Positions 18,531 through 47,657 of a stretch of 64,000 nucleotides of DNA are shown here, in pieces. Where the stretch lies: the NCBI GenBank assembly GCA_964618315.1, contig CAZTWQ010000002.1, forward strand, positions 22,980 through 86,979, given 5' to 3'. Positions within the stretch are counted from its first letter, which is position 1. The number at the start of each line of letters is the position of its first letter. Under the pieces are notes generated by a model. It saw only the letters and a list, made by a program, of their open reading frames with translations, was not told where the DNA came from and ran no database searches. Both the position numbers and the translations under genes were made by a program. Origin of the DNA: an uncultured Methanosarcinales archaeon (GTDB lineage Archaea; Nanobdellota; Nanobdellia; Woesearchaeales; JACPBV01).

Positions 18531-18610
18531 TTTTATTTTTTATTTTATTTTTAAATTTTAAATCAAAAAAAGAGGCTTGACTTGATATAGTAATATCATA
18601 GGTAATTATA

Positions 18611-19768: not shown

Positions 19769-19801
19769 ATATTAAAGAAAAATTTTGGAGGATGATATAA
19801 A

Positions 19802-21010: not shown

Positions 21011-21045
21011 TCATAAATTATAATTTAGGGGGGAATGATTGTAAA

Positions 21046-22680: not shown

Positions 22681-22706
22681 TCTTTATTAAATGGAGGTAA
22701 ATTAAA

Positions 22707-31070: not shown

Positions 31071-32240
31071 ATGGAAAATAAATTACTAGAAGAAATAGGC
31101 TTAACAAAAGGTGAGATATCTGTTTACTTTGCGTTATTAGAACTAGGGAGCTGCACAGTAGGACCTATAGTAGACAAGGCTAAAGTCAGCTCTTCCAAAG
31201 TATATAATATCCTTGAGAGGCTTACCCATAAAGGACTCGTTAGTTTTGTCATAAAAGAAAATACAAAATATTTTGAGGCCTCCCCCCCAGAACAGATCCT
31301 GGATTATCTTAAAGAACGAGAAGAGAGTATAAGTGAACAAAAAAGAAAGATCAAAGACATCCTCCCTGAACTTGAGCTTAAAAGGAAACTGTCAAAGTAT
31401 AAGAATGAAGCTACTGTGTTTAAAGGATTAAAAGGGGCAAAAACTGCTTTTGATGATGTTCTTAAATCCCTAAAAAAAGGAGAAGAATATCATGTATTGG
31501 GCTTTACCGATGTTTCTGGTTCGCTTCTTGCATTTCTCAAGAACTTTCACAGGCAAAGATCAAAAAAAGGCATCAAAGTAAAACTATTATTTTCAGAACA
31601 AGGAAAAGAATATGCTGAAACAATAAAAAGCATCCCCTCTACAGAGATAAAATTTGCTCCAAGCCAATTATTAAGTTCTTCTTTTGTATTGATGTACAAT
31701 GATAAAGTCTTGATTACAGTTGCTACTAAAGACAATCTGACCTTATTTAAGATAGAGAACAAAGAAGTAGCTGATTCATTTAGATCACAGTTTAAGTTAA
31801 TCTGGAACCAAGATACTATTGTTAATAAGGGGTTTAAAGCAATGAGTGATGCTTTGTATAATATTATCAATACAGTTGATCCTAAAAAAGGTTATTCTGC
31901 TTTAAATGCTTGTTGGGGTACTGAGCCATACAGGCAGAAATACATTGATTTTTTTAAGAAATACCATAAAGAGAGAATGAGATTAAAGGTTAATGCAAAG
32001 TTACTATTTAATCCTGGAATTCGATATATCCTTGAAGATAATAAAAGCAATTATGAAAAATATCTCCAATACAAAGTAATGCCTTATAAACCAGAATCTC
32101 CTGTTGAGGTTTTTACTACAGAAGATAAAGCTATACTCATTATACAAGAAAAAGAACCAATAGTTATAACAATCAATAATAAAGAAGTTTCAAAATCTTT
32201 TAAGACTAACTTTGAGGCATTGTGGAGCATATCTAAGTAA
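31071..32240 (+). CDS. TrmB-family transcriptional regulator with large C-terminal domain
   Basis: N-terminal wHTH LGLTKGEISVYFALLELGSCTVGPIVDKAKVSSSKVYNILERLTHKGLV. It ends 12 bp before the argF operator module. Confidence 0.7.
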   Translation: MENKLLEEIGLTKGEISVYFALLELGSCTVGPIVDKAKVSSSKVYNILERLTHKGLVSFVIKENTKYFEASPPEQILDYLKEREESISEQKRKIKDILPELELKRKLSKYKNEATVFKGLKGAKTAFDDVLKSLKKGEEYHVLGFTDVSGSLLAFLKNFHRQRSKKGIKVKLLFSEQGKEYAETIKSIPSTEIKFAPSQLLSSSFVLMYNDKVLITVATKDNLTLFKIENKEVADSFRSQFKLIWNQDTIVNKGFKAMSDALYNIINTVDPKKGYSALNACWGTEPYRQKYIDFFKKYHKERMRLKVNAKLLFNPGIRYILEDNKSNYEKYLQYKVMPYKPESPVEVFTTEDKAILIIQEKEPIVITINNKEVSKSFKTNFEALWSISK

Positions 32241-32252
32241 TATTATCATGAT

Positions 32253-32310
32253 GTCCAATATTAGACATTTATGTTTATATTGTTTTATTTAAGTCAATAA
32301 CTTTATAAAT
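32253..32310 (+). promoter_or_regulatory. arg promoter/operator module 1 (upstream of argF)
   Basis: GTCCAATATTAGAC-ATTTAT-GTTTATATTGTT...GTCAATAACTTTATAAAT. It has the same architecture as the modules at 35241 and 46400. Confidence 0.6.
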
Positions 32311-32377
32311 GGATTGTATTGAATAGGTAGATATTAAGCCTGTAATTTAACAAGCTTTGATTTAACAGAGAGAAAAA

Positions 32378-33235
32378 ATGAACTTACTAGCATTAAATGA
32401 TTTGTCTGGAAAGGAAATAATAGATCTAATAGATGATGCTCTTTTAATCAAAGAAGATCCTGATAAATATTTTAATGTGTTGAAAGGAAAGACAATGGCT
32501 ATGCTATTTGAGAAAACTTCAACAAGAACCAGGATTAGTTTTGAAGTGGGTATGGCACAATTAGGGGGGCATGCTTTGTTTCTCGATTGGAAAAGTACTC
32601 AGTTAGGCAAAGCAAATCTTAAAGATGAGATCCAATGTATAGGAAGATACGTTGATCTAATCATGGCTCGTGTATATGATCATAAAGATATAGAAACTAT
32701 GGCTAAATATGGCGGAAAGCCAGTCATCAATGCTTTGAGTGACCTTTACCATCCATGTCAGATATTGGCAGACCTTATGACAATAAAGGAAAAGTTAGGA
32801 AAACTTAAAGGCATGAAATTAGCTTATGTTGGCGATGGAAATAATGTTTGTAATTCATTGATAATTGGATGTAAAAAAGTTGGTATGACAATTAATGTCG
32901 CTTGTCCAAAAGGTTATGAACCTACGGAAAAACCAGACATGTTGACCACTGATATTGAGAAAGCTGTTAAGGGTGTTGATGTTATATATACAGATACATG
33001 GGTATCCATGGGACAGGAAGCTGAGAAGAAAAAAAGATTAAAAGTATTTCCACCATATCAAGTAAACAATAAGATCTTAGGAAAAGCATTATTCATGCAT
33101 TGCCTGCCTGCATACAGGGGTTATGAAGTTACAGATGATGTTATTGATTCAAAACAAAGCATTGTTTTTGATCAAGCTGAAAATAGGCTGCATGCTCAAA
33201 AAGCAGTTATATTGAAACTGATGGGTAAAATTTAA
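32378..33235 (+). CDS. argF: ornithine carbamoyltransferase
   Basis: STRTR, HPCQ, DTWVSMG, and HCLPA motifs. Confidence 0.9.
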   Translation: MNLLALNDLSGKEIIDLIDDALLIKEDPDKYFNVLKGKTMAMLFEKTSTRTRISFEVGMAQLGGHALFLDWKSTQLGKANLKDEIQCIGRYVDLIMARVYDHKDIETMAKYGGKPVINALSDLYHPCQILADLMTIKEKLGKLKGMKLAYVGDGNNVCNSLIIGCKKVGMTINVACPKGYEPTEKPDMLTTDIEKAVKGVDVIYTDTWVSMGQEAEKKKRLKVFPPYQVNNKILGKALFMHCLPAYRGYEVTDDVIDSKQSIVFDQAENRLHAQKAVILKLMGKI

Positions 33236-33253
33236 TTTTAAGGGGTGTATCAG

Positions 33254-34414
33254 ATGAAATTACTACAAAAGAATGTTTGTTCAGTATATGGAATCAAGGC
33301 TTTGGGTAAGCATATCGGTGTAAAAAAAGGAAAAAAAGATTTTGCTATCATATATTCTAAGAAACTTTGCAGTGCAGCAGCTGTTTACAGCCAGAATAAG
33401 ATAAAAGCGCCTGCGATAGAAATTACAAAAGACCACCTTAAAAATGGCAAGGCCCAGGCTATTGTCGTCATTTCTGGAAATGCAAATGTGGCTACTGGAA
33501 AGACTGGGCTTAATGATGCTGATAAGATCTGTAAATTAGTTGCAGAAGAGATTAATGTAAAGCCAAAAGACGTTCTTATCGCAAGTACAGGCATAATAGG
33601 CAAGAGGCTTCCGATGGATATCATAACAAGAGGTATAGTGGGTTCTAAAAAACAACTTCAGAAAGTAAATATGGTTGCAGAATCTTTGCTTACTACAGAT
33701 ACTGTAAAAAAAGAGATCGCTTTACAGGTTGATGGTTTTAAGATCGGAGCCATAGCTAAAGGTTCTGGGATGATACATCCTAATATGGCTACAATGCTTT
33801 GTTTTATCACAACAGATGCAGATATATCTTCTGATAACATTAAAAAATATCTAACTGAGGCTGTTGATGATAGTTTTAACATGCTTTCAGTTGACATGGA
33901 TACATCTACATCAGATATGGTGATGATAATGAGCACCAACAAGAAGAAAGTAAAGAAGACCCATTTTAAAGAAGCACTAAATCATGTCTGCCATGATATG
34001 GCTAAACGTATAGCTGCTGATGGAGAAGGGGCTACTAAGATGTTAGAAGTCACTGTAAAAGGTGCAACTACAAAAGAGTCTGCTAAGAAGATAGCTAAGA
34101 ACATAATTTCTTCTAACCTTGTCAAGTGCGCTATGTTTGGAAATGATCCAAATTGGGGCAGGATAATTGCAGCTGTTGGCAATTCAGATGTTGTCTTTAA
34201 GGAAGATAAGATTAGTATATTTCTTCAGAATGAAGCCATAGTCAAAGGCGGCAAAGAAGTTCCTAATTTTGATGGACATAAGATATCCAATCTGTTAAAA
34301 GGCAAAGAAGTCAGCATAGTCGTAAATCTAAATCAGGGAAAGGAGAAAGCGACTGCTTATGGATGTGACATGGGTTATAATTATATTCATATAAATGCAC
34401 AATATGGTCATTAA
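33254..34414 (+). CDS. argJ: bifunctional ornithine acetyltransferase / N-acetylglutamate synthase
   Basis: ATMLCFITTDA autoprocessing site. The ATG at 33254 follows AAGGGGTG. The track's GTG start at 33245 lies in the Shine-Dalgarno site. Confidence 0.9.
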   Translation: MKLLQKNVCSVYGIKALGKHIGVKKGKKDFAIIYSKKLCSAAAVYSQNKIKAPAIEITKDHLKNGKAQAIVVISGNANVATGKTGLNDADKICKLVAEEINVKPKDVLIASTGIIGKRLPMDIITRGIVGSKKQLQKVNMVAESLLTTDTVKKEIALQVDGFKIGAIAKGSGMIHPNMATMLCFITTDADISSDNIKKYLTEAVDDSFNMLSVDMDTSTSDMVMIMSTNKKKVKKTHFKEALNHVCHDMAKRIAADGEGATKMLEVTVKGATTKESAKKIAKNIISSNLVKCAMFGNDPNWGRIIAAVGNSDVVFKEDKISIFLQNEAIVKGGKEVPNFDGHKISNLLKGKEVSIVVNLNQGKEKATAYGCDMGYNYIHINAQYGH

Positions 34415-34416
34415 AA

Positions 34417-35241
34417 ATGGATAAGATATACAAGAAAGCGGAAGTGTTGATCGAAGCATTGCCCTATATCCAGGAATATTCTGGAAAGATTTTTGTTATA
34501 AAGTATGGCGGTAATGTGATGGTTGATGATGATACAAAAAAATCCATCATAGGTGATATAGCTTTGCTTCGTCATGTTGGGATCTTGCCTATAATTGTCC
34601 ATGGTGGCGGACCTGATATAAACAAGGAAGCTCAAAAAGAGCATATCATTCCTAAATTTATCAAAGGTTTAAGGTATACAGATGAAAAAACAATGAAGAT
34701 TGTCAAAAGAGTTACTGGTGATATAAGCAAAGAGATCATAGATATGCTTAAAGATGAGAAATGCAAGGCAATTAATGTAACTTCTGGATTGATAAAGTCT
34801 AAAGTTCGTAGTAAAGAATTAGGATTAGTCGGAGATGTTGTAAGCATAAATGAAAAGAAAATATTGGCTAAACTAAAGAAAGGAATTATTCCAATCATAA
34901 GTCCATTGGGTTATGATGGTAAAAACTTTAACAATATAAATGCAGATACTGTCGCAACTAAAATAGCAGAATCTGTTAAGGCAGAAAAACTGACTATATT
35001 GACCAATGTTGAAGGTGTTTATGAAGAAGGTAACCTTATCAGCCACCTAAGTATAGATGATGTCAAGAAAGGAATTAAGAAAGGCATAATCAGCCGTGGA
35101 ATGATACCTAAGGTTAAGGCTTGTGTCCATGCTATCAACAAAGGAGTTAAAAAAGTTCATCTTATAGATGGATTGCATAAACATGGTTTGTTATTAGAGA
35201 TATTTACTGATACTGGTATTGGTACTGAGATTGTTAAATAG
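34417..35241 (+). CDS. argB: acetylglutamate kinase
   Basis: VIKYGGN and HGGGP motifs, 274 aa. Confidence 0.9.
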   Translation: MDKIYKKAEVLIEALPYIQEYSGKIFVIKYGGNVMVDDDTKKSIIGDIALLRHVGILPIIVHGGGPDINKEAQKEHIIPKFIKGLRYTDEKTMKIVKRVTGDISKEIIDMLKDEKCKAINVTSGLIKSKVRSKELGLVGDVVSINEKKILAKLKKGIIPIISPLGYDGKNFNNINADTVATKIAESVKAEKLTILTNVEGVYEEGNLISHLSIDDVKKGIKKGIISRGMIPKVKACVHAINKGVKKVHLIDGLHKHGLLLEIFTDTGIGTEIVK

Positions 35242-35298
35242 TCTAGTATTGGACATTAATGTCTAATCTGTCTATTTCTAGTCAATAACTTTATAAAT
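35241..35298 (+). promoter_or_regulatory. arg promoter/operator module 2 (upstream of argD)
   Basis: GTCTAGTATTGGAC-ATTAAT-GTCTAATCTGTC...GTCAATAACTTTATAAAT. The 14-bp box is the exact reverse complement of the box in module 3. Confidence 0.6.
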
Positions 35299-35358
35299 TA
35301 AAGTGTTTAACTTATCAGTTAGTAGGTTATAATTTTGTATATTGTTTAACTTGATAAA

Positions 35359-36516
35359 ATGGATTCAAAAAAAATAAAAGAAAATGAGAAAAAACATGTA
35401 ATGCAGACTTATGGTAGGTTTGACATCATAGTTGATCATGGTAAAGGCTGCTATGTCTATTCAAAAGAAGGAAAAGAATATCTTGATTTTCTTGGAGGGA
35501 TAGCTTGTTGTTCAGTTGGACATTCTAATAAGAAAGTTACTGATGCAATCTCAGATCAGGCTGGCAAATTACTTAATGTTACAAATTATTACTATACAGA
35601 ACCACAAGTTGAACTAGCTAAGAAGTTAAGCGAACTATCTGGACTAAAGAAATGTTTTTTTGCTAACTCAGGTACAGAAGCAAATGAAGCTGCAATTAAG
35701 TTAGCTAAGAAAATAACAGGCAAAAAGAAATTTATTGCTTTTAATCATTGTTTTCATGGCAGGACTACTGGAAGTTTATCAGCTACATGGAAAGAGAAAT
35801 ACAAGAAACCTTTTGCTCCATTAGTACCCGAGGTTAAATTTGTTCCTTATGATGATATTGATGCTTTGGAAAAAGAGATCAATAGTGATATCGCAGGGGT
35901 TATTATCGAACCTATCCAGGGCGAAGCAGGTATAATTGTTCCATCTGATTGTTATCTAAAAAAAGTTAAAGAACTTTGTTCTAAAAATAAAGTTTTGATG
36001 ATAGTTGATGAAGTTCAATCAGGAAATGGGAGGACGGGAAAGTATTTCGCTTATCAGCATTCTGGTATAAAACCAGATATTGTAACAACAGCTAAAGGAT
36101 TAGCTAATGGTGTTCCAATCGGAGTTTGTATATCTGACTATGATTTTGATAAAGGGGATCATGCTTCAACATTTGGTGGCAATAATTTAGCCTGTGCAGC
36201 TGCAAATGCAACAGTTGATTTCATTATTGATAATAATCTGATGGAGAATGCTGTTGATGTTGGAGAATATTTCATGTCAGAATTGAATAAGTTAAAGTCA
36301 AAACATCCAGTTATTAAAGAAGTTCGTGGCAAGGGATTGATGATAGCTGTTGAACTAAATAAAGATGAAGGCAAGAAGATTGTTGACAACTGTTTAGATG
36401 ATGGTATGTTAATAAATAATGCTGCTGAGAATATATTAAGGTTTTTGCCACCTTTGACTGTTACAAAGAAAGAAATTGATAAAGCGATTAGTATTTTGGA
36501 TAAGGTGTTATCATGA
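35359..36516 (+). CDS. argD: acetylornithine aminotransferase
   Basis: Class-III aminotransferase with GTEANEAA, DEVQSG, and the PLP Lys in TTAKGLANG. Confidence 0.9.
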   Translation: MDSKKIKENEKKHVMQTYGRFDIIVDHGKGCYVYSKEGKEYLDFLGGIACCSVGHSNKKVTDAISDQAGKLLNVTNYYYTEPQVELAKKLSELSGLKKCFFANSGTEANEAAIKLAKKITGKKKFIAFNHCFHGRTTGSLSATWKEKYKKPFAPLVPEVKFVPYDDIDALEKEINSDIAGVIIEPIQGEAGIIVPSDCYLKKVKELCSKNKVLMIVDEVQSGNGRTGKYFAYQHSGIKPDIVTTAKGLANGVPIGVCISDYDFDKGDHASTFGGNNLACAAANATVDFIIDNNLMENAVDVGEYFMSELNKLKSKHPVIKEVRGKGLMIAVELNKDEGKKIVDNCLDDGMLINNAAENILRFLPPLTVTKKEIDKAISILDKVLS

Positions 36517-37493
36517 AATCAGTTGGAATAATCGGAGCATCAGGATATACTGGATATGAATTGATTAAGTTACTTAAAGGGCACTCTAAAGTTTCTCTTA
36601 AAGTTCTGAACAGCAAAAGCTATGATGGTAAGAAAGTTTCAGAGCTTTATCCTGATTATTCTGGTGAAGAAGAATTTACTAATTATTCTATTGATGAGAT
36701 CAATAAGATGAAATTAGACTGTGTTTTTTTATGCATCCCACATACAACTGCTTTTGATATCGTTCCTAAACTGAAGTGCAAAAAGATAATAGACCTATCA
36801 GCTGACTACAGGTTTAAGAAAACATCTGATTACGAATCTGTTTATGATGTCAAGCATTTAGATGAATCTGGAAATAAGAAAGCAGTCTATGGGCTTCCTG
36901 AATTATTTAAAGAGAAAATCTCAAAAGCAAAGATAGTAGCTAACCCTGGTTGTTATCCCACTGTATGCTTACTAAGCGCCTTTCCGATTCAGAAATTGGC
37001 CAAAAATATCATCTTGGACTGTAAGACAGGATGGAGTGGTGCTGGGAAGAAATCTAAGTTTGCTAAAGACCATTCGACCATAAAAGAAAACATTATCGCT
37101 TATAATTTAGTTAGTCATCGACATAAACCTGAGATGGAACAGTTTTTGAAAGCAAAGATTAGTTTTACACCACATGTCATCGATGCTTTTCAGGGAATGA
37201 TGTGTACTGCTCATGTTATTTTAAAAAAACCAATAAAAAAAGAAGAGATTATTAAATTATTTGAAGACCAATACAAAGATGAATCATTTGTAAAGATAGT
37301 AAAGGATAAAATACCAGAAATAAAAGATGTTGCAGGAACAAACTATTGCCATATAGGCGGTTTTGAAATTGATGATAATAATCAATTAGTAATTGTTTCA
37401 GTGATTGATAATTTGTTAAAGGGTGCATCTGGACAAGCTGTTCAGAATATGAATTTGATGTTTAAGTTTGATGAAACGGAGGGTTTAAAATGA
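36513..37493 (+). CDS. argC: N-acetyl-gamma-glutamyl-phosphate reductase
   Basis: GASGYTG loop and NPGCYPT active-site Cys. It overlaps argD by 4 nt. Confidence 0.85.
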
Positions 37494-38710
37494 AAGAAAA
37501 AGTTATATTAGCATACTCAGGTGGTTTAGATACATCTATAATATTAAAATGGTTGATAGACAAAGGCTATGATGTAGTCTGTTATATAGCAGACGTAGGC
37601 CAAGACGATGATTTTAAGGCTGCTGAAAAAAAGGCTATTGATCTGGGTGCTTCTAAAGTCTATATTGAGGATCTGAAAAAAGAATTTATCACTGATTTTG
37701 TCTATCCTGCTTTAAAGGGTAATGCTATCTATGAAGGTAAGTACCTGTTAGGTACTGCTTTAGCTCGTCCTTTAATTGCCAAAAACCATATTGAGATTGC
37801 TAAGAAAGAGAAGACAAATATCGTTGCTCATGGCGCTACTGGAAAAGGAAATGACCAAGTGAGGTTTGAGATGACATATTACACATTGATGCCTAATGTA
37901 AAGATAATTTCACCATGGAAAGATCCATCATTCTTAGATGAATTTAAAGGTAGAAGTGATATGATAGATTATGCTAAGAAAAAAGGAATACCTATTCCAG
38001 TAAGTAAGAAAGCCCCATATAGTTCTGACCCTAATATCATGCATATAAGCTATGAAGCAGGTGTATTAGAAGATCCCATGTATACACTGCCCGAAGAAGC
38101 TTTTCAGATGACAAAATCACCTAAAGAGGCTCCTGATAAAGAAACTTCTATCATGATCGAATTCAAAAAAGGAATTCCAGTTAAGGTTGAGAATAAAAAT
38201 GCAAATGTTGTTGAGACAGAACCACTTAAACTGTATTCTTATCTTAACAAGATTGCAGGTGAGAATGGCATAGGCCGTATAGATCTTGTTGAAGACAGAT
38301 TTGTAGGCATGAAAAGCCGTGGAGTGTATGAAACTCCAGCTGGAACTATACTTCGTGCTGCCCATCTTGATATAGAAGGTATGACAATGGATAGGGAAGT
38401 TATGGTTATCCGGGATAGTTTAATCCCTAAGTTTTCACAGTTGATTTATTTCGGATTCTGGTATGCTCCTGAGATGGAACTGCTTATGAGCTTAATAGAC
38501 AAATCCCAGGAGAATGTCAACGGAAAAGTCTATCTGAAACTGTATAAAGGGAATGTAAATGTTGTAGGCAGAGAAAGCTCCAGTTCGCTTTATGATGAGA
38601 AGATAGCATCAATGGATGAACTAGGCGGATATGACCAGACAGATGCCATAGGCTTTATCAAATTGAATGCTCTTAGGTTAAAAGCCTGGGCAAAAAGGAA
38701 GAAGATCTAA
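37490..38710 (+). CDS. argG: argininosuccinate synthase
   Basis: AYSGGLDTS and [13 protein letters not shown] motifs. Confidence 0.95.
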
Positions 38711-38712
38711 AG

Positions 38713-39162
38713 ATGAAAGCATTAGTCGCTTATTATTCAAGAACAGGAAATTCTAAAAAAATAGCCTTAGAGATAGCTAAGAAGCTAAATGCTGACATAG
38801 ATGAGATCAAAGACAAGAAGAAAAAAGGGATATTTGGTATGGTATGGTCATGCAGGCAGGCTATCAAAAGAAAATCCTCTTTGATTGATTATTCTAAGGA
38901 TGCTTCTGATTATGATCTTGTAGTTCTTGGAGGACCTGTATGGGCATTTAACCTTCTTCCACAACTCAGAAAATACCTTGAAGAGAATAAGATCAAAAAG
39001 CTGGGTTTTTTCCTGACTTATGGGGGCAATCCTGGAAAAAGCTTTGAACAGGCTGATAATCTGAAAAAGACAATAGCTACAGCAGGTTTTATAGATAAAG
39101 ATATTAGGGCTGGAAAGTATAAAGATAATTTGAATAAGTTTGTTAAAGAATTGAGTTTTTGA
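38713..39162 (+). CDS. flavodoxin-like protein
   Basis: MKALVAYYSRTGNSKK N-terminus, 149 aa, 2 nt after argG. Confidence 0.55.
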   Translation: MKALVAYYSRTGNSKKIALEIAKKLNADIDEIKDKKKKGIFGMVWSCRQAIKRKSSLIDYSKDASDYDLVVLGGPVWAFNLLPQLRKYLEENKIKKLGFFLTYGGNPGKSFEQADNLKKTIATAGFIDKDIRAGKYKDNLNKFVKELSF

Positions 39163-39172
39163 TATTCTTATA
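39055..39172 (+). repeat. 118-bp direct repeat, copy A (3' end of flavodoxin-like gene plus 10 nt)
   Basis: Base-for-base identical to 39881-39998, checked by hand. Confidence 0.95.
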
Positions 39173-39272
39173 ATTCAAACTGACAGTTGGATGTTTGATT
39201 GAGTTGATAAATTTCTGGATAAGGCCAAAAAACAAAAGAAATTTAAATAAATTACCATTCTTGAATAGTAGA

Positions 39273-39836
39273 ATGTCCTATGCACTTTATGATGAAACCC
39301 AAGCAGCTTTAAAAGCTATGAATCTACCCTTTCGTGGACCAATAGGACTCCGACAAAGGTGTGATAGTATACCAGGTAGTGTTTTAGTGGCTGCACTTGT
39401 AGATGAATATCTTGGTCCTTTTGTAAAGTCTGTTGGAGACTTAGTAATTGCAGAGGGACATTCATCATCTGCAGGACATGGAATCACCACATATGGAGGT
39501 AGTGGATCAGTTCAGATCGTTCTTAGTGATCTATATCATGGATATGTTTTTAGACAAGCAATTCAAGCGCATAAAGGTAGACGTGAACGGGCTGTTGGTG
39601 ATTTAGCTAATAGTAGTTTCGAAACCAATCCAGCTCAAATAATTAGAAGATATGGTCTTGATGCTAGTGGTAATGATCAGTTTAATAATCCATTTGGTGA
39701 TACATTTTATACAGTAGACTCAATCAAGGCAGCAATAAATCTGGCTGTTGAAAGACGTATAGCTGAGCTGGTAGCAGAAGACGATAAAGAACATCTGGGT
39801 GGTTTAGATCCTAATAAATACCTACTCCAAACTTAA
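39273..39836 (+). CDS. hypothetical protein (atypical composition) in the 708-bp insert
   Basis: 187 aa from the ATG at 39273, with a TATA-like AAATTTAAATAAATT about 25 nt upstream. The track's TTG start at 39195 adds a Lys-rich leader unlike the rest of the protein. Confidence 0.5.
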   Translation: MSYALYDETQAALKAMNLPFRGPIGLRQRCDSIPGSVLVAALVDEYLGPFVKSVGDLVIAEGHSSSAGHGITTYGGSGSVQIVLSDLYHGYVFRQAIQAHKGRRERAVGDLANSSFETNPAQIIRRYGLDASGNDQFNNPFGDTFYTVDSIKAAINLAVERRIAELVAEDDKEHLGGLDPNKYLLQT

Positions 39837-39880
39837 TAGCTCAATATTTAATCTATTGATCAAATAAATTCTATGATTAA

Positions 39881-39998
39881 GATAATCTGAAAAAGACAAT
39901 AGCTACAGCAGGTTTTATAGATAAAGATATTAGGGCTGGAAAGTATAAAGATAATTTGAATAAGTTTGTTAAAGAATTGAGTTTTTGATATTCTTATA
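39881..39998 (+). repeat. 118-bp direct repeat, copy B (orphan 3' gene fragment)
   Basis: Identical to 39055-39172. It encodes the last 35 codons of the flavodoxin-like gene with no upstream gene body. Confidence 0.95.
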
Positions 39999-40025
39999 TA
40001 ATAGAATAAAGAAATAATATTTAAT

Positions 40026-41288
40026 CTAAATTCCAAACGTTTGCTTAAATTGGTTAACCATAGTATTAGGCACAAGATAACCTGAAACATCAGTATGAGT
40101 TTCTGCAAAGCAACCATATATCAATCCATAGGTCTCTTTTGCTTCCCTAACTAATTTGCTTACATCTTTTGTGTCTTTTGGTTCTGGTGTAAGCTGCATA
40201 ACTCTTGTTCTTTCTGCTGTAGGTATTAACCAATCCTGATAAACATCACAATAAAGTTCTGGGTGGGGTGATTTATTTGTTCCTTCTTTTTCATCCCTAA
40301 CATTAAGATCTCTTTGAACATTTTCAGAAGTTGGCATGCCATGGGCATTATCATATAAAGAATTAAAATGAACAATCCATGCAGGCCAGACAACTTCCCT
40401 AGCGTATGCTGCCAGATCATAATCTCCAGCTTGTTTTGGTCCATCTGCTCCAACAGCTACATGACCTATATCCATATGCGCATAAACTTGGCAAGGGCTA
40501 TTAGTTTGTATAATCCTATGCATCCTGTTCATCTGGTCTATCCCTACTGGAGCCATCCCATCATGCTGGTACATAAGTTCAGTTGTACTGGAAATACCAT
40601 AATCATTTCTGTTCAATGCAATTGCAGTCTGAATGTTTAATGCTTCTGCTTCTGTTATATTTACTGAACTATCCACCTTATCAGGTAATTTCCATCCAAA
40701 GTGACCTGCCCATTGATTGATTGAATATGTAGTCATATGCCTTTCAGGAAAGGCAGTTAAAACCCTATGGCCTCCAACAGTTCTTCCTCCAACTGCATCT
40801 GCACACCTAATCAAATTTCTATATGCCCTAGTTGCTTTTGTTTGTTGCAACACATCAAATTCAAGATGCCCTGTTTTATCTAATGCAAGCATCCTTGTAT
40901 AAAGAAATTGACCTGTTCCAGTACCCTGTATCTTAAGGTCATATTTTTGAGCTAATCTTTTGATAAGATCCACTCTCTCCTGAAGCCATCCTGGAAATTC
41001 ACCTTGAAAATCAAGACCATTAAAGATTCCTGGCTTTTCGGGATTTTCAAATATATCTTCAGCCAACTCAACTTGAAGTATGTCTGCATCTAATTGGGGT
41101 AGAAAAAGATTAGCTTCAATCTCATCTAAAGATAACCTATCGGGCCTTATAAATCCTTTATCATCAGACTGCCTGTTTATACCATATGCATAAGTGTTTA
41201 ATCCTGGAACTATAATAGGTCCTTGCTGCATCTCTGGGTCTTCCTCTTTATGGAAGGTTATGCATTGTTCTAGAGTTGGTTTTGACAT
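40026..41288 (-). CDS. hypothetical protein, possibly TIM-barrel sugar isomerase/epimerase-like (weak)
   Basis: 420 aa, Lys-poor. His/Asp-containing strands (AHMDIGHV, WIVHFNS) resemble metal-dependent sugar isomerases; this is unverified. Confidence 0.45.
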   Translation of the reverse strand: MSKPTLEQCITFHKEEDPEMQQGPIIVPGLNTYAYGINRQSDDKGFIRPDRLSLDEIEANLFLPQLDADILQVELAEDIFENPEKPGIFNGLDFQGEFPGWLQERVDLIKRLAQKYDLKIQGTGTGQFLYTRMLALDKTGHLEFDVLQQTKATRAYRNLIRCADAVGGRTVGGHRVLTAFPERHMTTYSINQWAGHFGWKLPDKVDSSVNITEAEALNIQTAIALNRNDYGISSTTELMYQHDGMAPVGIDQMNRMHRIIQTNSPCQVYAHMDIGHVAVGADGPKQAGDYDLAAYAREVVWPAWIVHFNSLYDNAHGMPTSENVQRDLNVRDEKEGTNKSPHPELYCDVYQDWLIPTAERTRVMQLTPEPKDTKDVSKLVREAKETYGLIYGCFAETHTDVSGYLVPNTMVNQFKQTFGI

Positions 41289-41334
41289 TTTTTATCCTGC
41301 ATATATTTTTAATAAAAAAGTAAAAATAAAAAAA

Positions 41335-42126
41335 CTAACCTAAAATTGATTTCATACTAATCAATAACTCTTCAAGTTTAGGCGTACCAGAAACAGGAAA
41401 AGTAACTGTTCTTGAACCAGAATCAGTAGTTGTTAAATGTAATCTAGAGTCATACATTCGGCGTTTTCTTGATGCTACTACTTTCTCTGCTACGTTTCTT
41501 GTTGTTGCTGCTTCAGCTACTTTTTTTGCTGCTGCTTCTTCATCTTCTGGTGTTGTATCCTTATAATAAGATTGGTTAGGAAAAATCCCTAATGCTCTGT
41601 CAACAAGTGCGTCTACCATATACTCGTTTGATAATCCTAATTCTCTTACTCCAGCTAATCTTTTTAATTTACTTAGTGCCTCTCCTGCTACAGTATCAGT
41701 AACTGAGCTTGAAAAACTAACTGTAACATAATGGTGATCACTAGCATCCCTCACACTTACAGTAGTACCTGGTAATGCATAGACACCCACTCTACTTACA
41801 CCATTGGTTGATTCTAATCGCTTACCCCCTGCTTGTGAATCTTCATAAGACACATTTAAACCAACCTTATCTCCAACTCCAGCTAGATATTGTTCAAACC
41901 TTGCATTCATAGCATCCCTAACTCCATCATTCATCCAGACTTGTATCATTGGTGCAGGATCAGTTGGTTTTTTTGAATCTTGTTGTGCTGGTTCAGCACC
42001 ATTATAATTCTGTCGATGCCAATCTGCAAAAATCTGATCACGTTCTGCCCTAAATGCCCATACCTCAGGACCTTTATTGTTATATACTATCTGTGCTGCT
42101 GGCGCACTTTGAGTTTCTTGTACCAT
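41335..42126 (-). CDS. hypothetical protein (atypical composition)
   Basis: 263 aa from the ATG at 42126, which is preceded by GGAGGGG. The track's TTG start at 42141 lies at the Shine-Dalgarno site. Confidence 0.5.
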   Translation of the reverse strand: MVQETQSAPAAQIVYNNKGPEVWAFRAERDQIFADWHRQNYNGAEPAQQDSKKPTDPAPMIQVWMNDGVRDAMNARFEQYLAGVGDKVGLNVSYEDSQAGGKRLESTNGVSRVGVYALPGTTVSVRDASDHHYVTVSFSSSVTDTVAGEALSKLKRLAGVRELGLSNEYMVDALVDRALGIFPNQSYYKDTTPEDEEAAAKKVAEAATTRNVAEKVVASRKRRMYDSRLHLTTTDSGSRTVTFPVSGTPKLEELLISMKSILG

Positions 42127-42270
42127 TATTATCCCCTCCAAAAATATTAATATTTAATGAAATTAAATGATGGTATTTAAATCTTTCTATCGTCTCTATT
42201 TTAAAGTAGTTAATGGTGGAAAGGTTTATAAATATAAATGAAACTGTAATGAAAAATAAGGGGATAAAAA

Positions 42271-43476
42271 ATGCCATCAGTAGTCATAGAAGGAGCAGGG
42301 AATGCAGGAAGAGCAGTACATGCACCTAGATTTCTTGAAGCAGGTTATAAGGTTACATTAGTAGATGTCAATCCAGGTCTTGTAGGTCATCTTAAAAAAG
42401 AAGGAAAGTATACTGTTGAGGTAGTTGGAGATGGTGCAAAAACATATGATGTAAGTGGTTTTGAGATGCTTCACGGCAATGAAGATAGGGATGCAGTTGT
42501 AGCAAGGATTAGAGATGCTGATCTTGCGATAACTGCAGTAGGTGAAAGAGCACTTCCTTTTATATATCCTGTTTTTGCAGAAGCATTAGGACAAAGAGGC
42601 AGACCATTGAGTGTTATTCTTGCAGAGAACATGGGTCAGCCTGAAACTGTATTTAGACAAGGAATTAATGATATTAATCCAGCAGCAGCTTCTGAAGACA
42701 TGTTATATCTTACAGGTGCGTGTATCGGCACTATGATGCCATTACCTGTTAAAGGGGAATTCTCAGTTGTCAGAAGAGAAGCATATGATAAGGTAATCAT
42801 AGCAAATCAAGCTTTTCCAGATGGCTTTCCACAAGTGCCTAACCTGGAAGGAGTTCACAATTTTCCAGCACACCTAAGTGAAAAATTATTAGTTCATAAT
42901 GGGGGGCATTCTGCATTGGCTTATTTTGCACACCAATATGGTATTGATTATATCTGGGAGGCTGCAGCCAGATCAGATCTTATGGGATATGCAAGAGCTG
43001 TTATGGACTTAGCAGGAGAAGTTCTTGTCAGGGAACATCCTGATGATTTTGATGAAGCCTATATGCAAGCCCACACCGCTGATCTAGAAGCGAGATTTGG
43101 AAATCAAAGATTAGGCGATACAGTTTACAGAGTCGGAAAAGACCTATTGAGAAAATTAGGACCTACAGATAGACTCGCCCCCACAGTCAGATTAGCACAA
43201 AAATATGGACTTGATCCTGATCCAGTTTTAAGGGCAATTGGTGTTGGAATATTCTTTTATGATGCAGTAGACGAAGATGGAAAGCCTCATGCAGGAGATG
43301 CCGCTGTAAGGGATATATTCATGAATGAGGGACACATGGATGATGGTGATGGACATAGTGGTGTAAGAAATGTATTGACAGCTGTCTGTAATTTTGACCC
43401 TCAAGTAGATAGTGCCATTATAGATAGAACATATCAACTTGCTGAGGAGTTTAATCAGAGTGTACATTCTAAGTAA
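42271..43476 (+). CDS. mannitol-dehydrogenase-family enzyme, mannitol-1-phosphate 5-dehydrogenase-like
   Basis: N-terminal IEGAGNAGRAV...VTLVDVN parallels MtlD's HFGAGNIGRGF. LVHNGGHSALAY parallels the MtlD central motif. 401 aa. Confidence 0.55.
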   Translation: MPSVVIEGAGNAGRAVHAPRFLEAGYKVTLVDVNPGLVGHLKKEGKYTVEVVGDGAKTYDVSGFEMLHGNEDRDAVVARIRDADLAITAVGERALPFIYPVFAEALGQRGRPLSVILAENMGQPETVFRQGINDINPAAASEDMLYLTGACIGTMMPLPVKGEFSVVRREAYDKVIIANQAFPDGFPQVPNLEGVHNFPAHLSEKLLVHNGGHSALAYFAHQYGIDYIWEAAARSDLMGYARAVMDLAGEVLVREHPDDFDEAYMQAHTADLEARFGNQRLGDTVYRVGKDLLRKLGPTDRLAPTVRLAQKYGLDPDPVLRAIGVGIFFYDAVDEDGKPHAGDAAVRDIFMNEGHMDDGDGHSGVRNVLTAVCNFDPQVDSAIIDRTYQLAEEFNQSVHSK

Positions 43477-43601
43477 TTTCTCTCTTTTTCCAGTAACCAC
43501 AAATTCTTATATATCATAAATTTGTTTATTAACTTCTTAACAATAACCACAAACTTTTATATACTCAACATCCATTTCTAAGTTAATTAGGGGGTAATAA
43601 T

Positions 43602-44675
43602 TTGATATCACATAGAAAATACATGGAATTAGCTTTAAAATTAGCTGAAAGGGGCAAAGGTAGTGCTTCACCTAATCCTGTAGTCGGTTCTTTGATAGTT
43701 AAGAGGGGCAGGGTTGTTGGCAGAGGCTGGCATAAAAAATGCGGTGATGATCATGCTGAAGCATGTGCTTTAAAAGAAGCTGGAGGCAAAGCTAAAGGCA
43801 GTATACTTTACGTCACTTTAGAACCATGTTCACATTGGGGTAGAACACCTCCTTGTACTAAGAAGATTGTAGAAGCAGGTGTTAGGGAAGTTGTCATTGG
43901 TATGAAAGATCCTAATCCAATAGTTAATGGTTATGAGCAACTAAGATTTATGGGGATAAAGACAAGGATAGGCATATTAGAAGAAGAATGTAAGAAATTA
44001 AATGAACCATATTCCAAGTGGATAAGAACAAAAAAACCTTTTGTGATTGTTAAAGCAGCTATGTCTTTAGATGGCAAGATTGCTACTAAAATAGGGGATA
44101 GCAAATATATCACAGGCAGAGAAGCCAGAAAATTAGTGCATGAGATGAGAGCAGAACTTGATGCAGTTATGGTCGGTATAAATACTGTTATGAAAGACGA
44201 TCCTCAATTGACAGTAAGACTTGCAAAGGGAAGAAATCCCATGAAGATTGTTGTCGATACTAAATTAAGAATACCTTTAAATTCCAAGATCATTAAAAAT
44301 GAACCTGAGAAATTGATTATAGCCACATCTAACAAAGCCAGTAAGAAAAAAGTAAAAGCATTACAGCAAAAAGGCCTTAATGTTATCCTTACAGAGCTTA
44401 AGGATGGTAAGATTGACCTGAAAAAGCTTATGAAAGAGCTTGGAAAATCTGAGATAACTTCTATTATGATAGAAGGCGGAGCAGAACTCAATGCAGAAGC
44501 ACTACGTTCAGGTATAGTTGATAAGATATTATTCTTTATCTCACCTAAGATGATTGGCAAAGGGATAGGCGCTGTAGGCGACCTGGGTATAAATAAGGTT
44601 GACAAATCAATGAATCTTAAGAGTATTGATTATAAGAAAGTTGGAAGAGATATTCTTATAGAAGGATATTTGTAA
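43602..44675 (+). CDS. ribD: bifunctional riboflavin deaminase/reductase
   Basis: HAEACAL...PCSHWGRTPPC zinc deaminase motifs plus a C-terminal reductase domain. The TTG start follows AGGGGGT. Confidence 0.9.
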   Translation: MISHRKYMELALKLAERGKGSASPNPVVGSLIVKRGRVVGRGWHKKCGDDHAEACALKEAGGKAKGSILYVTLEPCSHWGRTPPCTKKIVEAGVREVVIGMKDPNPIVNGYEQLRFMGIKTRIGILEEECKKLNEPYSKWIRTKKPFVIVKAAMSLDGKIATKIGDSKYITGREARKLVHEMRAELDAVMVGINTVMKDDPQLTVRLAKGRNPMKIVVDTKLRIPLNSKIIKNEPEKLIIATSNKASKKKVKALQQKGLNVILTELKDGKIDLKKLMKELGKSEITSIMIEGGAELNAEALRSGIVDKILFFISPKMIGKGIGAVGDLGINKVDKSMNLKSIDYKKVGRDILIEGYL

Positions 44676-44739
44676 GTTACTCATATTAGAGTAAGATTAA
44701 ACCATAATTTTTTAAATAATACCTTTTTCTTTAAATATT

Positions 44740-45345
44740 ATGTTTGGTAAGATAGAATACGCAATAAAACAATTACAAAGAGGAGACTTTATTATTCTTG
44801 TAGATGATGAAAACAGGGAAAATGAAGGCGATCTAGTCATAGCTGCAGAAAAAGCAACACCTTCAAAGCTTAATTATTTTATTAAATATGCTGGTGGTTT
44901 GATGTGCGTTCCTATGTCTGGTTCTAGATTAGATAAATTAGAAATTCCCATGATGGTTAAAGATAGTACAGACAGATTAAATACACCGTTTACTGTTTCT
45001 GTCGATGCTAAAGACAATACATCTACTGGAATGAGTGTCAATGATAGATTAGAAACTTTAAAAGTATTGCTTGATGACTCAAGTAAATCAGGTGATTTGT
45101 CAAGACCAGGTCATATGTTCCCTTTACGATCTTCTGACAATGGTGTTTTTGATAGGGAAGGTCATACTGAAGCGTCTGTTGATCTATGTAGATTAGCAGG
45201 TTTAAAGGAAATTGCTGTTATCGCAGAGATAATGAATGAAGATGGTTCAATGGCAAAGCTGCCTAATCTTGAAAAGTTTGCTAAAGAACGAAAACTTGAG
45301 ATCTATACTATAAAAGATCTGATTGAATATAGAAAGAGTAATTAA
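44740..45345 (+). CDS. ribB: 3,4-dihydroxy-2-butanone-4-phosphate synthase
   Basis: DDENRENEGDLV and GHTEAS motifs. Confidence 0.9.
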   Translation: MFGKIEYAIKQLQRGDFIILVDDENRENEGDLVIAAEKATPSKLNYFIKYAGGLMCVPMSGSRLDKLEIPMMVKDSTDRLNTPFTVSVDAKDNTSTGMSVNDRLETLKVLLDDSSKSGDLSRPGHMFPLRSSDNGVFDREGHTEASVDLCRLAGLKEIAVIAEIMNEDGSMAKLPNLEKFAKERKLEIYTIKDLIEYRKSN

Positions 45346-46370
45346 GTTGGGAAATGCCTGCTATATCTTTCAAATAATCTCCCCCATAAATCAAATTTTT
45401 CTTCTGTTGTTCTATTTGTCCTAAATGGGTTACCAGAAGAGATACCTTCTCTTAGAGGTCTTACCAATTGAACCATTGCTTTAGTTCCTCTTTCTGTTAG
45501 GGATAAACTAACAAGATCATAAGGGGTAAGTTTAGTGATAACTTCATCACTTTCTAATCTTCCAAGGGTCTTATATAAGTGTGATCTATCTGTTCTTAAC
45601 CTACCATTTAATTGACTAACAGTCATAAAAACATTGTCACCCCTAAGGAGACTTACTACTTGTTCAGAAGTTCCGCTAAGACCGCTTACTTCTGGATTTG
45701 TTAATCTATAAAGCTTTCCAGATTTAATTTCAGGCATTTCACCATCAGCAGATACAAGACCTTGTTCAATAAGCCTGGCGCATAGTTTATATGCTTGGCT
45801 AGGATTTAATTCAACAATACCCCTATCACTTTTTGTACTAGCACTTAACTGAGAATAGGTTTGAGTGCCCCCTTCATGTAAATGCTCCAATGCTTCTGCT
45901 CGACTTAAAGTTGAATTGCCTTGGCCTGTTGCAGAACCAAATGTTGCTGATAGGCATATGTCTAATTCATCTGCCTTTTCTAGAAGGAAATATAATGGTC
46001 CTACCATCCCCCTATATTCTTCGTTAGCATACCACCCATTTACAGATTCTTTGCCCCTAGTGGGATGTTTTTGTGTAGTTGTTCCTTGATCAATAAATGC
46101 AATTGATCCTTGCCCTCTTCTTGCAAAACTGGTACTCATCTCATGGATTGTTCCCTTCTTAAAATATTGCCCAGCAAAAGGGTATCTTTCTCTTAACTCA
46201 TTAGCTAAACTACCTTCAGAAACAGGCCATGAACTTGATCTATTATACATTTCAAATACTAAAGCCCTTCTTTCATCTGCTAAGCTCCATATAGTACTAC
46301 ATAATCGAGCATATCCATTATTTTGCGCCATCTGCCATTGGAAACTTATTCTTTTTTTAAATCTTACCAT
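45342..46370 (-). CDS. hypothetical protein with repeated winged-helix-like segments (atypical composition)
   Basis: 342 aa with several wHTH-like stretches (e.g. AYKLCARLIEQGLVS, LYKTLGRLESDEVITK). Its stop codon overlaps the ribB stop. Confidence 0.45.
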   Translation of the reverse strand: MVRFKKRISFQWQMAQNNGYARLCSTIWSLADERRALVFEMYNRSSSWPVSEGSLANELRERYPFAGQYFKKGTIHEMSTSFARRGQGSIAFIDQGTTTQKHPTRGKESVNGWYANEEYRGMVGPLYFLLEKADELDICLSATFGSATGQGNSTLSRAEALEHLHEGGTQTYSQLSASTKSDRGIVELNPSQAYKLCARLIEQGLVSADGEMPEIKSGKLYRLTNPEVSGLSGTSEQVVSLLRGDNVFMTVSQLNGRLRTDRSHLYKTLGRLESDEVITKLTPYDLVSLSLTERGTKAMVQLVRPLREGISSGNPFRTNRTTEEKFDLWGRLFERYSRHFPT

Positions 46371-46399
46371 TATGAGTACTAAATAGTAGTTAGATTATT

Positions 46400-46457
46400 G
46401 TCCAATACTAGACATTAATGTCTAATCTGTCTATTTCTGGTCGATAGCTTTATAAAT
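46400..46457 (+). promoter_or_regulatory. arg promoter/operator module 3 (upstream of argH)
   Basis: GTCCAATACTAGAC-ATTAAT-GTCTAATCTGTC...GTCGATAGCTTTATAAAT. It contains the perfect 16-bp palindrome TAGACATTAATGTCTA at 46409-46424. Confidence 0.6.
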
Positions 46458-46489: not shown

Positions 46490-47650
46490 ATGACTAAGAT
46501 ATGGCAAGGTAATGTAAACAAGAAGATTGAGAAGTTTACAGTAGGTAATGACTTTATAATAGATCAGAAACTATTGAAATATGATTGTATCGCTTCTATC
46601 GCACATTCAAAGATGTTAAAGAAAATTAAGATATTAACAGAGCAAGAACAAAAAAAGCTTGAAGATGAACTGAATAATATAATTGAATTAAATGATAAAT
46701 GCAAATTTACAATAAAATCAGAAGATGAAGACTGTCATACTGCTATCGAAAATCACCTTACAAAGAAATTAGGCGATCTAGGAAAAAAGATACATACTGC
46801 AAGGTCAAGGAATGACCAGGTAGTTGCTGCAATGAAACTTTATGAGAAAGATGAACTTAACGATGTTTCTAAATTAGTCAAGGACCTAATTAATGCCCTG
46901 AAAAAGATACCAGATGTTATTATGCCTGGCTATACTCATATGCAGAAGGCCATGCCTAGTTCTACTAAGCTATGGGCAGAAGGTTTTATCGAGACTTTAG
47001 AAGATGACCTTGTATTACTGTCTAGTGCTTTAGGCATTATAGATAAGAATCCATTAGGGAGTGCTGCTGGTTATGGTGTTCCATTAGATATAGACAAAAA
47101 TATTACCAAAAAAGAATTAGGATTTAAGGCTAATTATTCTTCTGTCACTTCAGTCCAGATCTCACGAGGCAAGCATGAAGCCATAATCCTGAATGCTTTG
47201 GTCAATGTGATGTATACTTTGAATAAGATAGCATCTGACATGATATTATTCTCTATGCCTGAATTTGGTTATTTTTCATTGCCTGCTGAATTCACAACAG
47301 GTAGCTCTATAATGCCTCAGAAAAAGAATCCAGATGTCTTAGAGTTAGTCAGGGGCAAGTATTCAATCGTCTTAGGCTATGAATTTCAATTGAAAAGTTT
47401 GATTGCTAATCTCATATCTGGCTATAATCGTGATCTGCAGCTGACAAAAGAGCCCTTGATGAAAGGGTTTGATACTGTTAAAGAATGTGTTGAGATAATG
47501 ACTTTGGTGGTTAATGGTCTAAAAATTAATACCAAAAAATGTACCAAAGCCATGACCTCTGAACTGTATGCTACTGAAGAAGTTTATAAATTAGTCAAAA
47601 AAGGAAAATCATTCAGGGAAGCTTATAAAGAAATAAAAAAGGCATTGTAA
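46490..47650 (+). CDS. argH: argininosuccinate lyase (short form)
   Basis: Fumarate-lyase signature GSSIMPQKKNPD and TARSRNDQ. At 386 aa it is shorter than typical ArgH. Confidence 0.85.
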   Translation: MTKIWQGNVNKKIEKFTVGNDFIIDQKLLKYDCIASIAHSKMLKKIKILTEQEQKKLEDELNNIIELNDKCKFTIKSEDEDCHTAIENHLTKKLGDLGKKIHTARSRNDQVVAAMKLYEKDELNDVSKLVKDLINALKKIPDVIMPGYTHMQKAMPSSTKLWAEGFIETLEDDLVLLSSALGIIDKNPLGSAAGYGVPLDIDKNITKKELGFKANYSSVTSVQISRGKHEAIILNALVNVMYTLNKIASDMILFSMPEFGYFSLPAEFTTGSSIMPQKKNPDVLELVRGKYSIVLGYEFQLKSLIANLISGYNRDLQLTKEPLMKGFDTVKECVEIMTLVVNGLKINTKKCTKAMTSELYATEEVYKLVKKGKSFREAYKEIKKAL

Positions 47651-47657
47651 TTCTAAG

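Follow-up and report, generated by a model that had tools for sequence, protein, structure and literature searches.

The closest described systems act on the biosynthesis of other amino acids. Xie and Reeve reportedly found in 2005 that TRP boxes lie between the trp operon and the divergent trpY gene, and that tryptophan is needed for a complex that blocks the TATA-binding protein (TBP). LysM, which Brinkman et al. are said to have described in 2002, reportedly joins a DNA-binding N-terminal domain to an ACT-like (RAM) domain, has its site 5' of a biosynthetic promoter and is responsive to the end-product amino acid. To our knowledge, no archaeal regulator of the classical ArgJ-type route to arginine has been described, and almost nothing is known of gene regulation in DPANN archaea. 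This lineage is usually thought to be without biosynthesis and elaborate regulation. The passages of PMC6737238 that concern TrpY of Methanothermobacter thermautotrophicus present an archaeal tryptophan repressor logic with autorepression. The same source describes Tar (TK0271) of Thermococcus kodakarensis, which binds TGGACA-N8-TGTCCA upstream of the transcription factor B (TFB) recognition element (BRE) and TATA box and activates aromatic amino acid operons (PMC6737238). The present analysis concerns a 64,000-nt stretch of woesearchaeal DNA (the window; G+C approximately 33%), in which a module consisting of a palindromic box and a BRE/TATA promoter precedes each of the three arginine transcription units, those beginning with argF, argD and argH. 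With contig extensions of 10 kb on either side, the visible DNA for this organism amounts to 84 kb. Comparative evidence indicates that the module is very probably the operator and promoter of an arginine regulon that is conserved across a clade of Woesearchaeota.

The three modules share a common layout, with a 14-bp GTC-N8-GAC box, a 6-nt ATTWAT spacer, a GTYTAWWYTGTY element, 8-9 further bases and then GTCRATARC-TTTATAAAT. All are on the forward strand. The argF module (32251-32310; 58-bp part 32253-32310) opens with the 18-bp palindrome ATGTCCAATATTAGACAT (32251-32268), the 14-bp core of which, GTCCAATATTAGAC, occupies 32253-32266. This is followed by the spacer ATTTAT, the second element GTTTATATTGTT (32273-32284), the gap TTATTTAA, the GTC and BRE sequence GTCAATAAC (32293-32301) and the TATA box TTTATAAAT (32302-32310). 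In the argD module (35239-35298; 58-bp part 35241-35298), the box core GTCTAGTATTGGAC (35241-35254) overlaps the argB stop codon and is followed by the spacer ATTAAT, the second element GTCTAATCTGTC (35261-35272), the gap TATTTCTA, GTCAATAAC (35281-35289) and the TATA box TTTATAAAT (35290-35298). The argH module (46398-46457; 58-bp part 46400-46457) has the box core GTCCAATACTAGAC (46400-46413), the spacer ATTAAT, the second element GTCTAATCTGTC (46420-46431), the gap TATTTCTG, the promoter part GTCGATAGC (46440-46448) and the TATA box TTTATAAAT (46449-46457). The start codons of argF, argD and argH are at 32378, 35359 and 46490, and the predicted leaders measure approximately 45, 38 and 10 nt, respectively.

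An earlier note on this DNA, made by reading the sequence, had reported the three modules, and they were found precisely where it placed them. Its comparisons of the copies were also reproduced. The argD and argH copies are identical at 41 of 44 positions 3' of the box, the argF and argH boxes differ by a single mismatch, the argH box recurs at argD as its exact reverse complement, and the sequence TAGACATTAATGTCTA at 46409-46424 is a perfect 16-bp palindrome. The note had further held that the conservation is greater than chance would allow, and the counts bear this out. With up to three mismatches, GTCAATAACTTTATAAAT has 3 matches in the 64-kb window (0.37 expected), while GACATTAATGTCTAATCTGTC has 2 (0.02 expected), and neither half of the module was found elsewhere in the 64 kb. 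An 18-bp weight matrix trained solely on instances from outside the window singled out the same three boxes at 16-27 bits (argF, 27.2 bits; argH, 25.5 bits; argD, 16-17.5 bits), compared with 10.4 bits for the runner-up site in the 64 kb. No further box was present in the 84 kb, and the matrix scan found none at the argS, arginase-family or aspartate-family genes of the window; carAB lies outside it.

The earlier note had suggested that orthologous intergenic regions be compared, and relatives were therefore collected with an ArgJ query against a genome set that has one member for each GTDB species, without use of the motif. Eight woesearchaeal loci (L002-L009) were recovered with ArgJ identities of 52-65%; the next best matches were bacterial, at 45% or less. 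The module was retained at the arginine promoters of all eight relatives, where it stands upstream of the first gene of the arg clusters. The gene behind it is argF in L002, L003, L004, L005 and L009, argG in L005 and L006, argJ in L007, L008 and L009, and argH in L004 and L006 as well as in 11 metagenome loci. The L004 counterpart of the argF module is at approximately 4595-4655. When scored with the 18-bp matrix, the eight woesearchaeal loci (123 kb) contained 17 sites of at least 15 bits, whereas the 72 bacterial ArgJ loci (1.05 Mb) contained none.

A blind scan of Joint Genome Institute (JGI) metagenome contigs was conducted with the pattern GACANNNNTGTNTN{16,19}TCRATANNTWTWTAAA, which leaves the left half of the box unspecified. 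A GTC was nevertheless present exactly 11 nt 5' of the GAC in approximately 31 of the 40 matches; the remaining 8-9 or so lacked it and look like chance. The genes 3' of the full-box matches encode ArgH (11), ArgG (8, including a 33%-identical paralogue), ArgF (2-3) and ArgJ (2), so that at least 24 of approximately 28 assessable matches lie upstream of argH, argG, argF or argJ. The other full-box matches precede a 256-aa protein (three near-identical loci) and one membrane protein, or fall at a few contig ends. Furthermore, carAB is found in an operon behind a box in L140. The earlier note had said that its proposal would be refuted if the motif were a generic promoter or repeat family, or if it were missing from the arginine promoters of close relatives; the eight relatives answer the second point. 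The scan, dominated as it is by arginine genes, indicates that the module is neither.

The possibility was considered that the module is nonetheless a strong promoter of a general kind or a repeat family, or that the palindromes are terminators of the upstream genes. Two of the three modules begin within 12 nt of an upstream stop codon, and TATA boxes of the TTTATAAA form are frequent in the window. However, there are just three boxes in the 64 kb, or in the 84 kb with the extensions, and the GTC elements are missing from the other promoters of the window. The module follows the arginine genes across species whatever gene lies upstream, and the stems comprise only 3-6 AT-rich base pairs with no shared T-run after them. 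The blind scan, the weight-matrix scan and the bacterial controls largely refute this explanation, which we regard as very improbable. The module is instead supported as the operator and TATA promoter of an arginine regulon: it is present at three of three arginine units in the window and in eight of eight relatives, and is rare elsewhere. That part of the earlier proposal thus stands, while the regulator it favored is not supported, as discussed below. The note had also stated that no archaeal arginine operator of this form was known, and neither this motif nor arginine regulation in Woesearchaeota turned up in full-text searches of a paper library.

A few genes outside the arginine pathway also carry the full module, namely the 256-aa open reading frame (ORF) in L091, L111 and L117, a 187-aa ORF in L124 (8024-8587) and the membrane protein gene in L085. 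None of the three proteins has a Pfam match, and their position makes them candidate additional members of the regulon. A gene resembling glycerophosphodiester phosphodiesterase (GDPD), likewise behind a full module and a candidate member, occurs twice inside arg or carAB operons (L009, 13795-14496; L140, 6226-6705). In L006 (8763-9995) and L107 (1449-2549), both of which have a normal argG as well, a second, divergent argininosuccinate synthase-like gene (33% identical to ArgG) follows a full module and precedes argJ.

The anatomy of the module was derived from 41 distinct instances. The information content is 0.8-1.4 bits per position within the module compared with 0.2 in the flanks (15 nt upstream and 30 nt downstream), and the core proved to be the 18-bp palindrome ATGTCYAAWWTTRGACAT rather than just the 14-bp box. 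Several columns that the searches had left free are nearly invariant, including C3 (41/41), A6 (39/41), R11 (41/41) and the G before the proximal TC (40/41). Box positions 4 and 11 show all four combinations at similar frequencies (13, 8, 9 and 10); the two halves vary independently and the site is functionally symmetric. Additional half-sites of the TGTC type follow 3' of the palindrome at +20 (TGTCTAW), approximately +29 (TTGTY) and +41 (GTC), at spacings of roughly one or two helical turns; counted from the palindrome's left half, the sites at +20 and +41 are two and four turns away. The final GTC directly precedes RATA(A/G)N-TTTATAAA and so abuts the BRE/TATA. The RATA(A/G)N sequence itself matches the generic BRE-like RWAA-NN-TATA pattern of the window, and in this part of the promoter only the GTC is specific to the module.

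All three window modules have an archaeal BRE/TATA core promoter with TTTATAAA(T), and the offset from the box to the TATA box is 49 or 50 bp in 41 of 41 instances, which places the center of the strong palindrome approximately 47 bp upstream of the TATA center. In 13 of the 23 arg-linked matches from relatives, the start codon lies 20-26 nt 3' of TTTATAAA, a distance that fits leaderless mRNAs and supports the TATA assignment.

The argD box appears flipped; as the site is dyad-symmetric, the flip is an exchange of the two half-sites. No other of the 41 instances has a G at position 6, a base complementary to C9 of the argH box. The remainder of the module is chimeric: its first 25 nt, directly 3' of the box, match the argH copy exactly, and its final 19 nt match the argF copy exactly, a mosaic that suggests recombination or gene conversion between modules. 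Moreover, there is no module before argD in the closest relative, L004, where a G+C-rich hairpin is found instead. To judge from these comparisons, the argD box looks like a truly inverted box of the argH type within an internal promoter of recent construction.

The earlier note had considered the TrmB-like regulator encoded at 31071-32240 (forward strand, 389 aa) an obvious candidate for the binder of the boxes. Its ORF does stop at 32240, 12 nt 5' of the argF box, and residues 6-74 of the protein form a true winged helix-turn-helix of the TrmB type (PF01978, E=1.3e-15). TrmB-family dimers typically bind palindromes. However, the context is not conserved: no homologue was found near the approximately 50 module loci of relatives, with tblastn covering eight genome loci (L002-L009) and approximately 31 metagenome loci (L082-L120). 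In L004 the modules are kept, and an ArsA-like ATPase gene takes the place of the TrmB-like gene upstream of argF. The two closest homologues examined (49-51% identity) have unrelated neighbors and no arginine genes nearby, the family exceeds 750 members across Woesearchaeota, and there is no box upstream of the TrmB-like gene itself. Additionally, in L001, a 9.6-kb European Nucleotide Archive (ENA) contig from the same strain, a 26-bp deletion shifts the reading frame of the gene while the modules are intact. Binding of the boxes by this protein is accordingly considered improbable. Homologues of the protein are labelled Woesearchaeota or Nanoarchaeota, which assigns the window to a DPANN archaeon, and the NCBIfam TrmB and TrmBL1 models match only its N-terminus, far under their cut-offs.

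The deletion in L001 removes window positions 31303-31328 (L001 5267/5268) and splits the gene into ORFs of 79 and 313 aa. It could be a natural variant with loss of function or, at 5x coverage, an error of assembly; the arg modules 3' of it are identical. At 99.7% identity to the window, L001 is too similar to be of use for footprinting. A second local candidate, the PadR-like gene transcribed away from argH, was also rejected as the source of the binder, as no homologue occurs at any related locus and ribB directly precedes argH in L004.

The ORFs of the module-bearing loci were then clustered without prior assumptions. A single recurrent family other than the arginine enzymes has a ligand-sensing (ACT) domain. 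This family, designated p211 for its length of approximately 211 aa, is present at 16 loci. The remaining recurrent families are the arginine enzymes, syntenic rib genes and argS, and there was no transcription factor-like family among the 30 largest ORF families at these loci. In several relatives, p211 is transcribed divergently from its neighbor: the single argGFHJBDC operon in L127 and L138, argJ-argB in L121 and L094, a cluster beginning with argG in L105, an operon of an amino acid kinase (AA-kinase) gene, a GDPD gene, carA and carB in L140, and the 187-aa gene with its own full module in L124-L126. The promoter of p211 has the form ATWWAT-GTCCRAAACAAAAC-ATTTAWATA in nine lineages. The left half of its box is good; the right half, which adjoins the TATA box, is weaker, and the box overlaps the BRE position. 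Scored with the arg-box matrix, these boxes reach 15-18 bits, compared with 19-27 bits for the arg boxes.

The p211 family has more than 1,188 matches at 60-70% identity, all from Woesearchaeota where the source is named. Pfam gave only weak matches to DUF7523 and ACT_7, neither the PDB nor NCBIfam yielded a useful match to the sequence, and one member has been named by JGI as a 'predicted regulator of amino acid metabolism with ACT domain'. In the AlphaFold model (mean predicted local distance difference test score, pLDDT, of 85), residues 80-211 form a tandem ACT domain like the regulatory domain with which aspartokinase binds amino acids (Foldseek E=1e-8, probability 1.0), and the model matches 3c1n, 2hmf, 3tvi and 2dtj with E values of 1e-8 to 1e-6 and probability 1.0. 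The N-terminal 79 residues are predicted to form a basic four-helix domain with an invariant G25-x-x-N28-Y-S-x-L-x-R34 segment in a helix-turn-helix-like position. This domain is found almost solely in the architecture of approximately 210 aa and comprises at least 409 clusters at 50% identity, its distant relatives all being called 'hypothetical' without an informative name among them.

On the strength of gene neighborhood, promoter sequence and model structure, p211 is the best candidate for the binder of the box, although we would put this identification just short of even odds. Several observations weigh against it. When modelled alone, the N-terminal domain had no significant match to a DNA-binding fold or solved structure (best E=3.5), the fold search returning only weak homeodomain- or POU-like matches with E>3, and DNA binding by p211 is for this reason only putative. 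No p211 homologue was found in the window or its 10-kb extensions, and the idea that the 213-aa or 175-aa ORF of the window (orf213, orf175) is a diverged p211 was rejected at an hhalign probability of 0.1%. The gene also belongs to a conserved synteny block, rimK … p211-ribA-ribD-ribB-argS; the order in relatives is [arg cluster]-p211-x-ribA-ribD-ribB-x-argS, and part of the linkage between p211 and the arginine genes could be inherited gene order. Equally, p211 could be a co-regulated member of the regulon or the regulatory ACT subunit of an enzyme.

An alternative is therefore that another transcription factor encoded elsewhere binds the boxes and that p211 is merely regulated along with the arginine genes. 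Its product could then be an arginine-sensing ACT subunit that acts on an enzyme such as ArgB, which has the AA-kinase fold, or an RNA-binding protein that acts on its own structured leader. The absence of a significant match to a DNA-binding fold, the resemblance of the tandem ACT domain to aspartokinase regulatory subunits, the contribution that synteny may make to the linkage, and the conserved hairpin and small ORF that precede p211 all favor this explanation. However, no other regulator-like family is recurrent near the modules. The arrangement is, moreover, the classic one for a regulator, with p211 divergent from its target, boxes between the two and a weaker one over the p211 promoter, and the N-terminal domain is basic with an invariant helix-turn-helix-like segment. 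A different binder is thus considered rather unlikely, and p211 is retained as the candidate in what follows.

In the window, five unrelated genes stand in place of p211 and ribA, which have probably moved elsewhere in the genome, as the gene order of relatives suggests, and we infer that p211 of this organism is encoded outside the visible 84 kb. The interval 38713-43476 contains the flavodoxin gene, three ORFs without a family match (213, 420 and 268 aa) and a mannitol dehydrogenase-like gene; in relatives, the arg cluster is separated from ribD at this point by p211, a short ORF and ribA. While ribD and ribB are present, ribA was not seen in the 84 kb.

The 5' leader of the p211 operon is conserved and folds into a 13-pair hairpin; compensatory changes occur at four of the pairs, and the loop GAGUACCAC is conserved as well. 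The hairpin is followed by a conserved small ORF of approximately 31 aa (MQKDLSEWI…), without an Rfam match. The leader was seen at L124 8740-8845, L127 9800-9895, L105 approximately 890-1040 (reverse strand), L008 approximately 3420-3540 (reverse strand), L091 10965-11090, L002 and L138, and is not in the window. The hairpin with the small ORF may provide a second, RNA-level layer of control. Rfam searches of the window and the p211 leader regions returned nothing except tRNAs.

A mechanism can be proposed in which a dimeric transcription factor, p211 being the best candidate, would nucleate on the palindrome. Arginine bound to the ACT domains would allow dimers to cooperate from the strong distal palindrome toward the weak promoter-proximal sites. 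The weaker sites would be filled by dimers at two-turn intervals, the last of which would cover the BRE/TATA, and occlusion of the promoter would result in end-product repression of argFJB, argDCG and argH. The weaker box on the BRE/TATA of p211 itself would provide autorepression. Such a scheme has been reported for TrpY of M. thermautotrophicus (PMC6737238) and for bacterial ArgR. We assign a probability of roughly 0.6 to this combined reading, in which the module is the arginine operator and promoter, p211 the arginine-sensing binder, and repression is brought about by cooperative occupancy extending to the BRE/TATA. Given the operator, repression as such is somewhat favored.

The position of the operator, mostly upstream of the BRE/TATA, is a consideration on the other side, since it is typical of activators in archaea (Tar, PMC6737238). 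The same operator might thus be bound by an activator, which would recruit TFB and TBP through the BRE-abutting site when arginine is scarce and be released by arginine. Indeed, a strong palindrome approximately 47 bp upstream of the TATA box with an array that ends at the BRE is an archaeal activator arrangement, Tar of T. kodakarensis activates amino acid operons from a related upstream palindrome when amino acids are absent, and the fixed offset of 49-50 bp suits a stereospecific contact with the basal machinery. However, the arginine promoters have a near-consensus TATA box and a BRE that is ordinary for the organism, so that an activator should not be needed, and the box over the BRE position at the p211 promoter is a repressive arrangement. 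Activation is for these reasons judged the less likely mode of action, and repression is the mode preferred here.

The units served by the three modules are as follows. The first (32378-35241, forward strand) consists of argF, which encodes ornithine carbamoyltransferase, argJ and argB, identified by the Pfam families OTCace_N/OTCace, ArgJ and AA_kinase. The second (35359-39836, forward strand) comprises argD, argC and argG (Aminotran_3, Semialdhyde_dh and Arginosuc_synth; 35359-38710), followed by a flavodoxin gene (Flavodoxin) and the 213-aa ORF, which has no family match and to which the transcript probably extends. In the third (46490-48185, forward strand), argH (Lyase_1, 46490-47650) is followed by the 175-aa ORF of unknown function, which is 52% identical to an ORF adjoining argH in L097, where it is likewise 3' of argH. 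The PadR-like gene (45342-46370, reverse strand, 342 aa; PF03551, E=2.3e-6, 28 bits) is divergent from argH, with its ATG at 46370. Because TTTATAAA is its own reverse complement, the argH TATA box, within the region 46370-46457, could also serve this gene. The operator would in that event lie inside the transcribed leader of the PadR-like gene, and the BRE on that side looks poor.

Two other features of the window were recorded. A run of genes resembling those of sugar metabolism at 15948-23921 has a G+C content of 0.38 compared with 0.33 and a strong positive GC skew. It includes two xylose isomerase-like TIM barrels, a DUF4432 gene, an FGGY kinase and a PfkB kinase, and may be a laterally acquired island. 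An 89-nt tRNA gene at 61595-61683 (Rfam, 49.9 bits) was not called by ARAGORN in bacterial mode and is consistent with an intron-containing archaeal tRNA. As to the pathway itself, the nearest ArgJ proteins outside the woesearchaeal clade among loci L002-L081 are all bacterial (Dehalococcoidales, Bacillota, Sumerlaeota and others), at no more than 45% identity, which hints that the ArgJ-type pathway of these DPANN archaea was acquired from bacteria.

The module is a sharply defined, phylogenetically validated operator (41 instances with fixed geometry) that comes with a concrete candidate family of regulators, so that arginine sensing in these archaea becomes directly testable in vitro. It also indicates that a complete and regulated arginine pathway has been retained in these Woesearchaeota, and that they do not depend wholly on a host. 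A broader proposal, that p211 is a new archaeal transcription factor family, the arginine sensor and the master regulator of arginine and carbamoyl phosphate biosynthesis in Woesearchaeota, is tentative and falls noticeably below even odds. The family, with its novel basic N-terminal domain, would in that case bind the ATGTCYAAWWTTRGACAT array, control itself through the weaker box at its own BRE/TATA and lie behind the structured leader and the 31-aa small ORF. If true, p211 would be an archaeal functional analogue of ArgR, assembled from unrelated parts in a DPANN lineage.

Compared with bacterial ArgR/AhrC, the present system has the same dispersed arginine units with a common 18-bp palindromic operator, and the arginine-dependent oligomerization and cooperative promoter binding proposed for it would be a further likeness. 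The promoter, however, is of the archaeal BRE/TATA type. No match to the ARG-box consensus TNTGAATWWWWATTCANW with up to three mismatches falls inside any module, the window as a whole having 69 matches (89.6 expected), and no window ORF matches the Arg_repressor domains of ArgR in Pfam. As in LysM and other Lrp-type regulators, an N-terminal domain is joined in p211 to an ACT-like ligand domain, with DNA binding by p211 being a proposal only. The ACT domain is, in contrast, a tandem of the aspartokinase type and the N-terminal domain a different, all-helical one. There is no Lrp/AsnC gene in the window, and p211 has no AsnC/Lrp match in Pfam. The TGM motif of the TrmB family also differs from the motif described here.

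The likeness to Tar lies in a palindrome of TGTCC/GGACA-type half-sites 5' of the BRE/TATA that is common to several amino acid operons. However, the half-sites are everted and closer here, as TGTCYA-N4-TRGACA and then TRGACA-N4-TGTCTA. Tar is, furthermore, a MarR-like activator encoded inside the aro operon, whereas no Tar-like gene is linked to the modules. The layout of TrpY, a divergent regulator with boxes in the shared region, is mirrored by p211 in L127, L138 and L140 and also in L121, L105 and L094, while in the window there is no p211 within the 84 kb. The amino acid is a different one, the TRP box TGTACA is distinct from ATGTCYAAWWTTRGACAT, and no named homologue was found among relatives of the p211 N-terminal domain. 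The module of the window serves three dispersed units, none of them next to the candidate regulator. What is new is the motif, the clade and the probable family of regulators; the system is known in kind: a transcription factor operator of an amino acid regulon.

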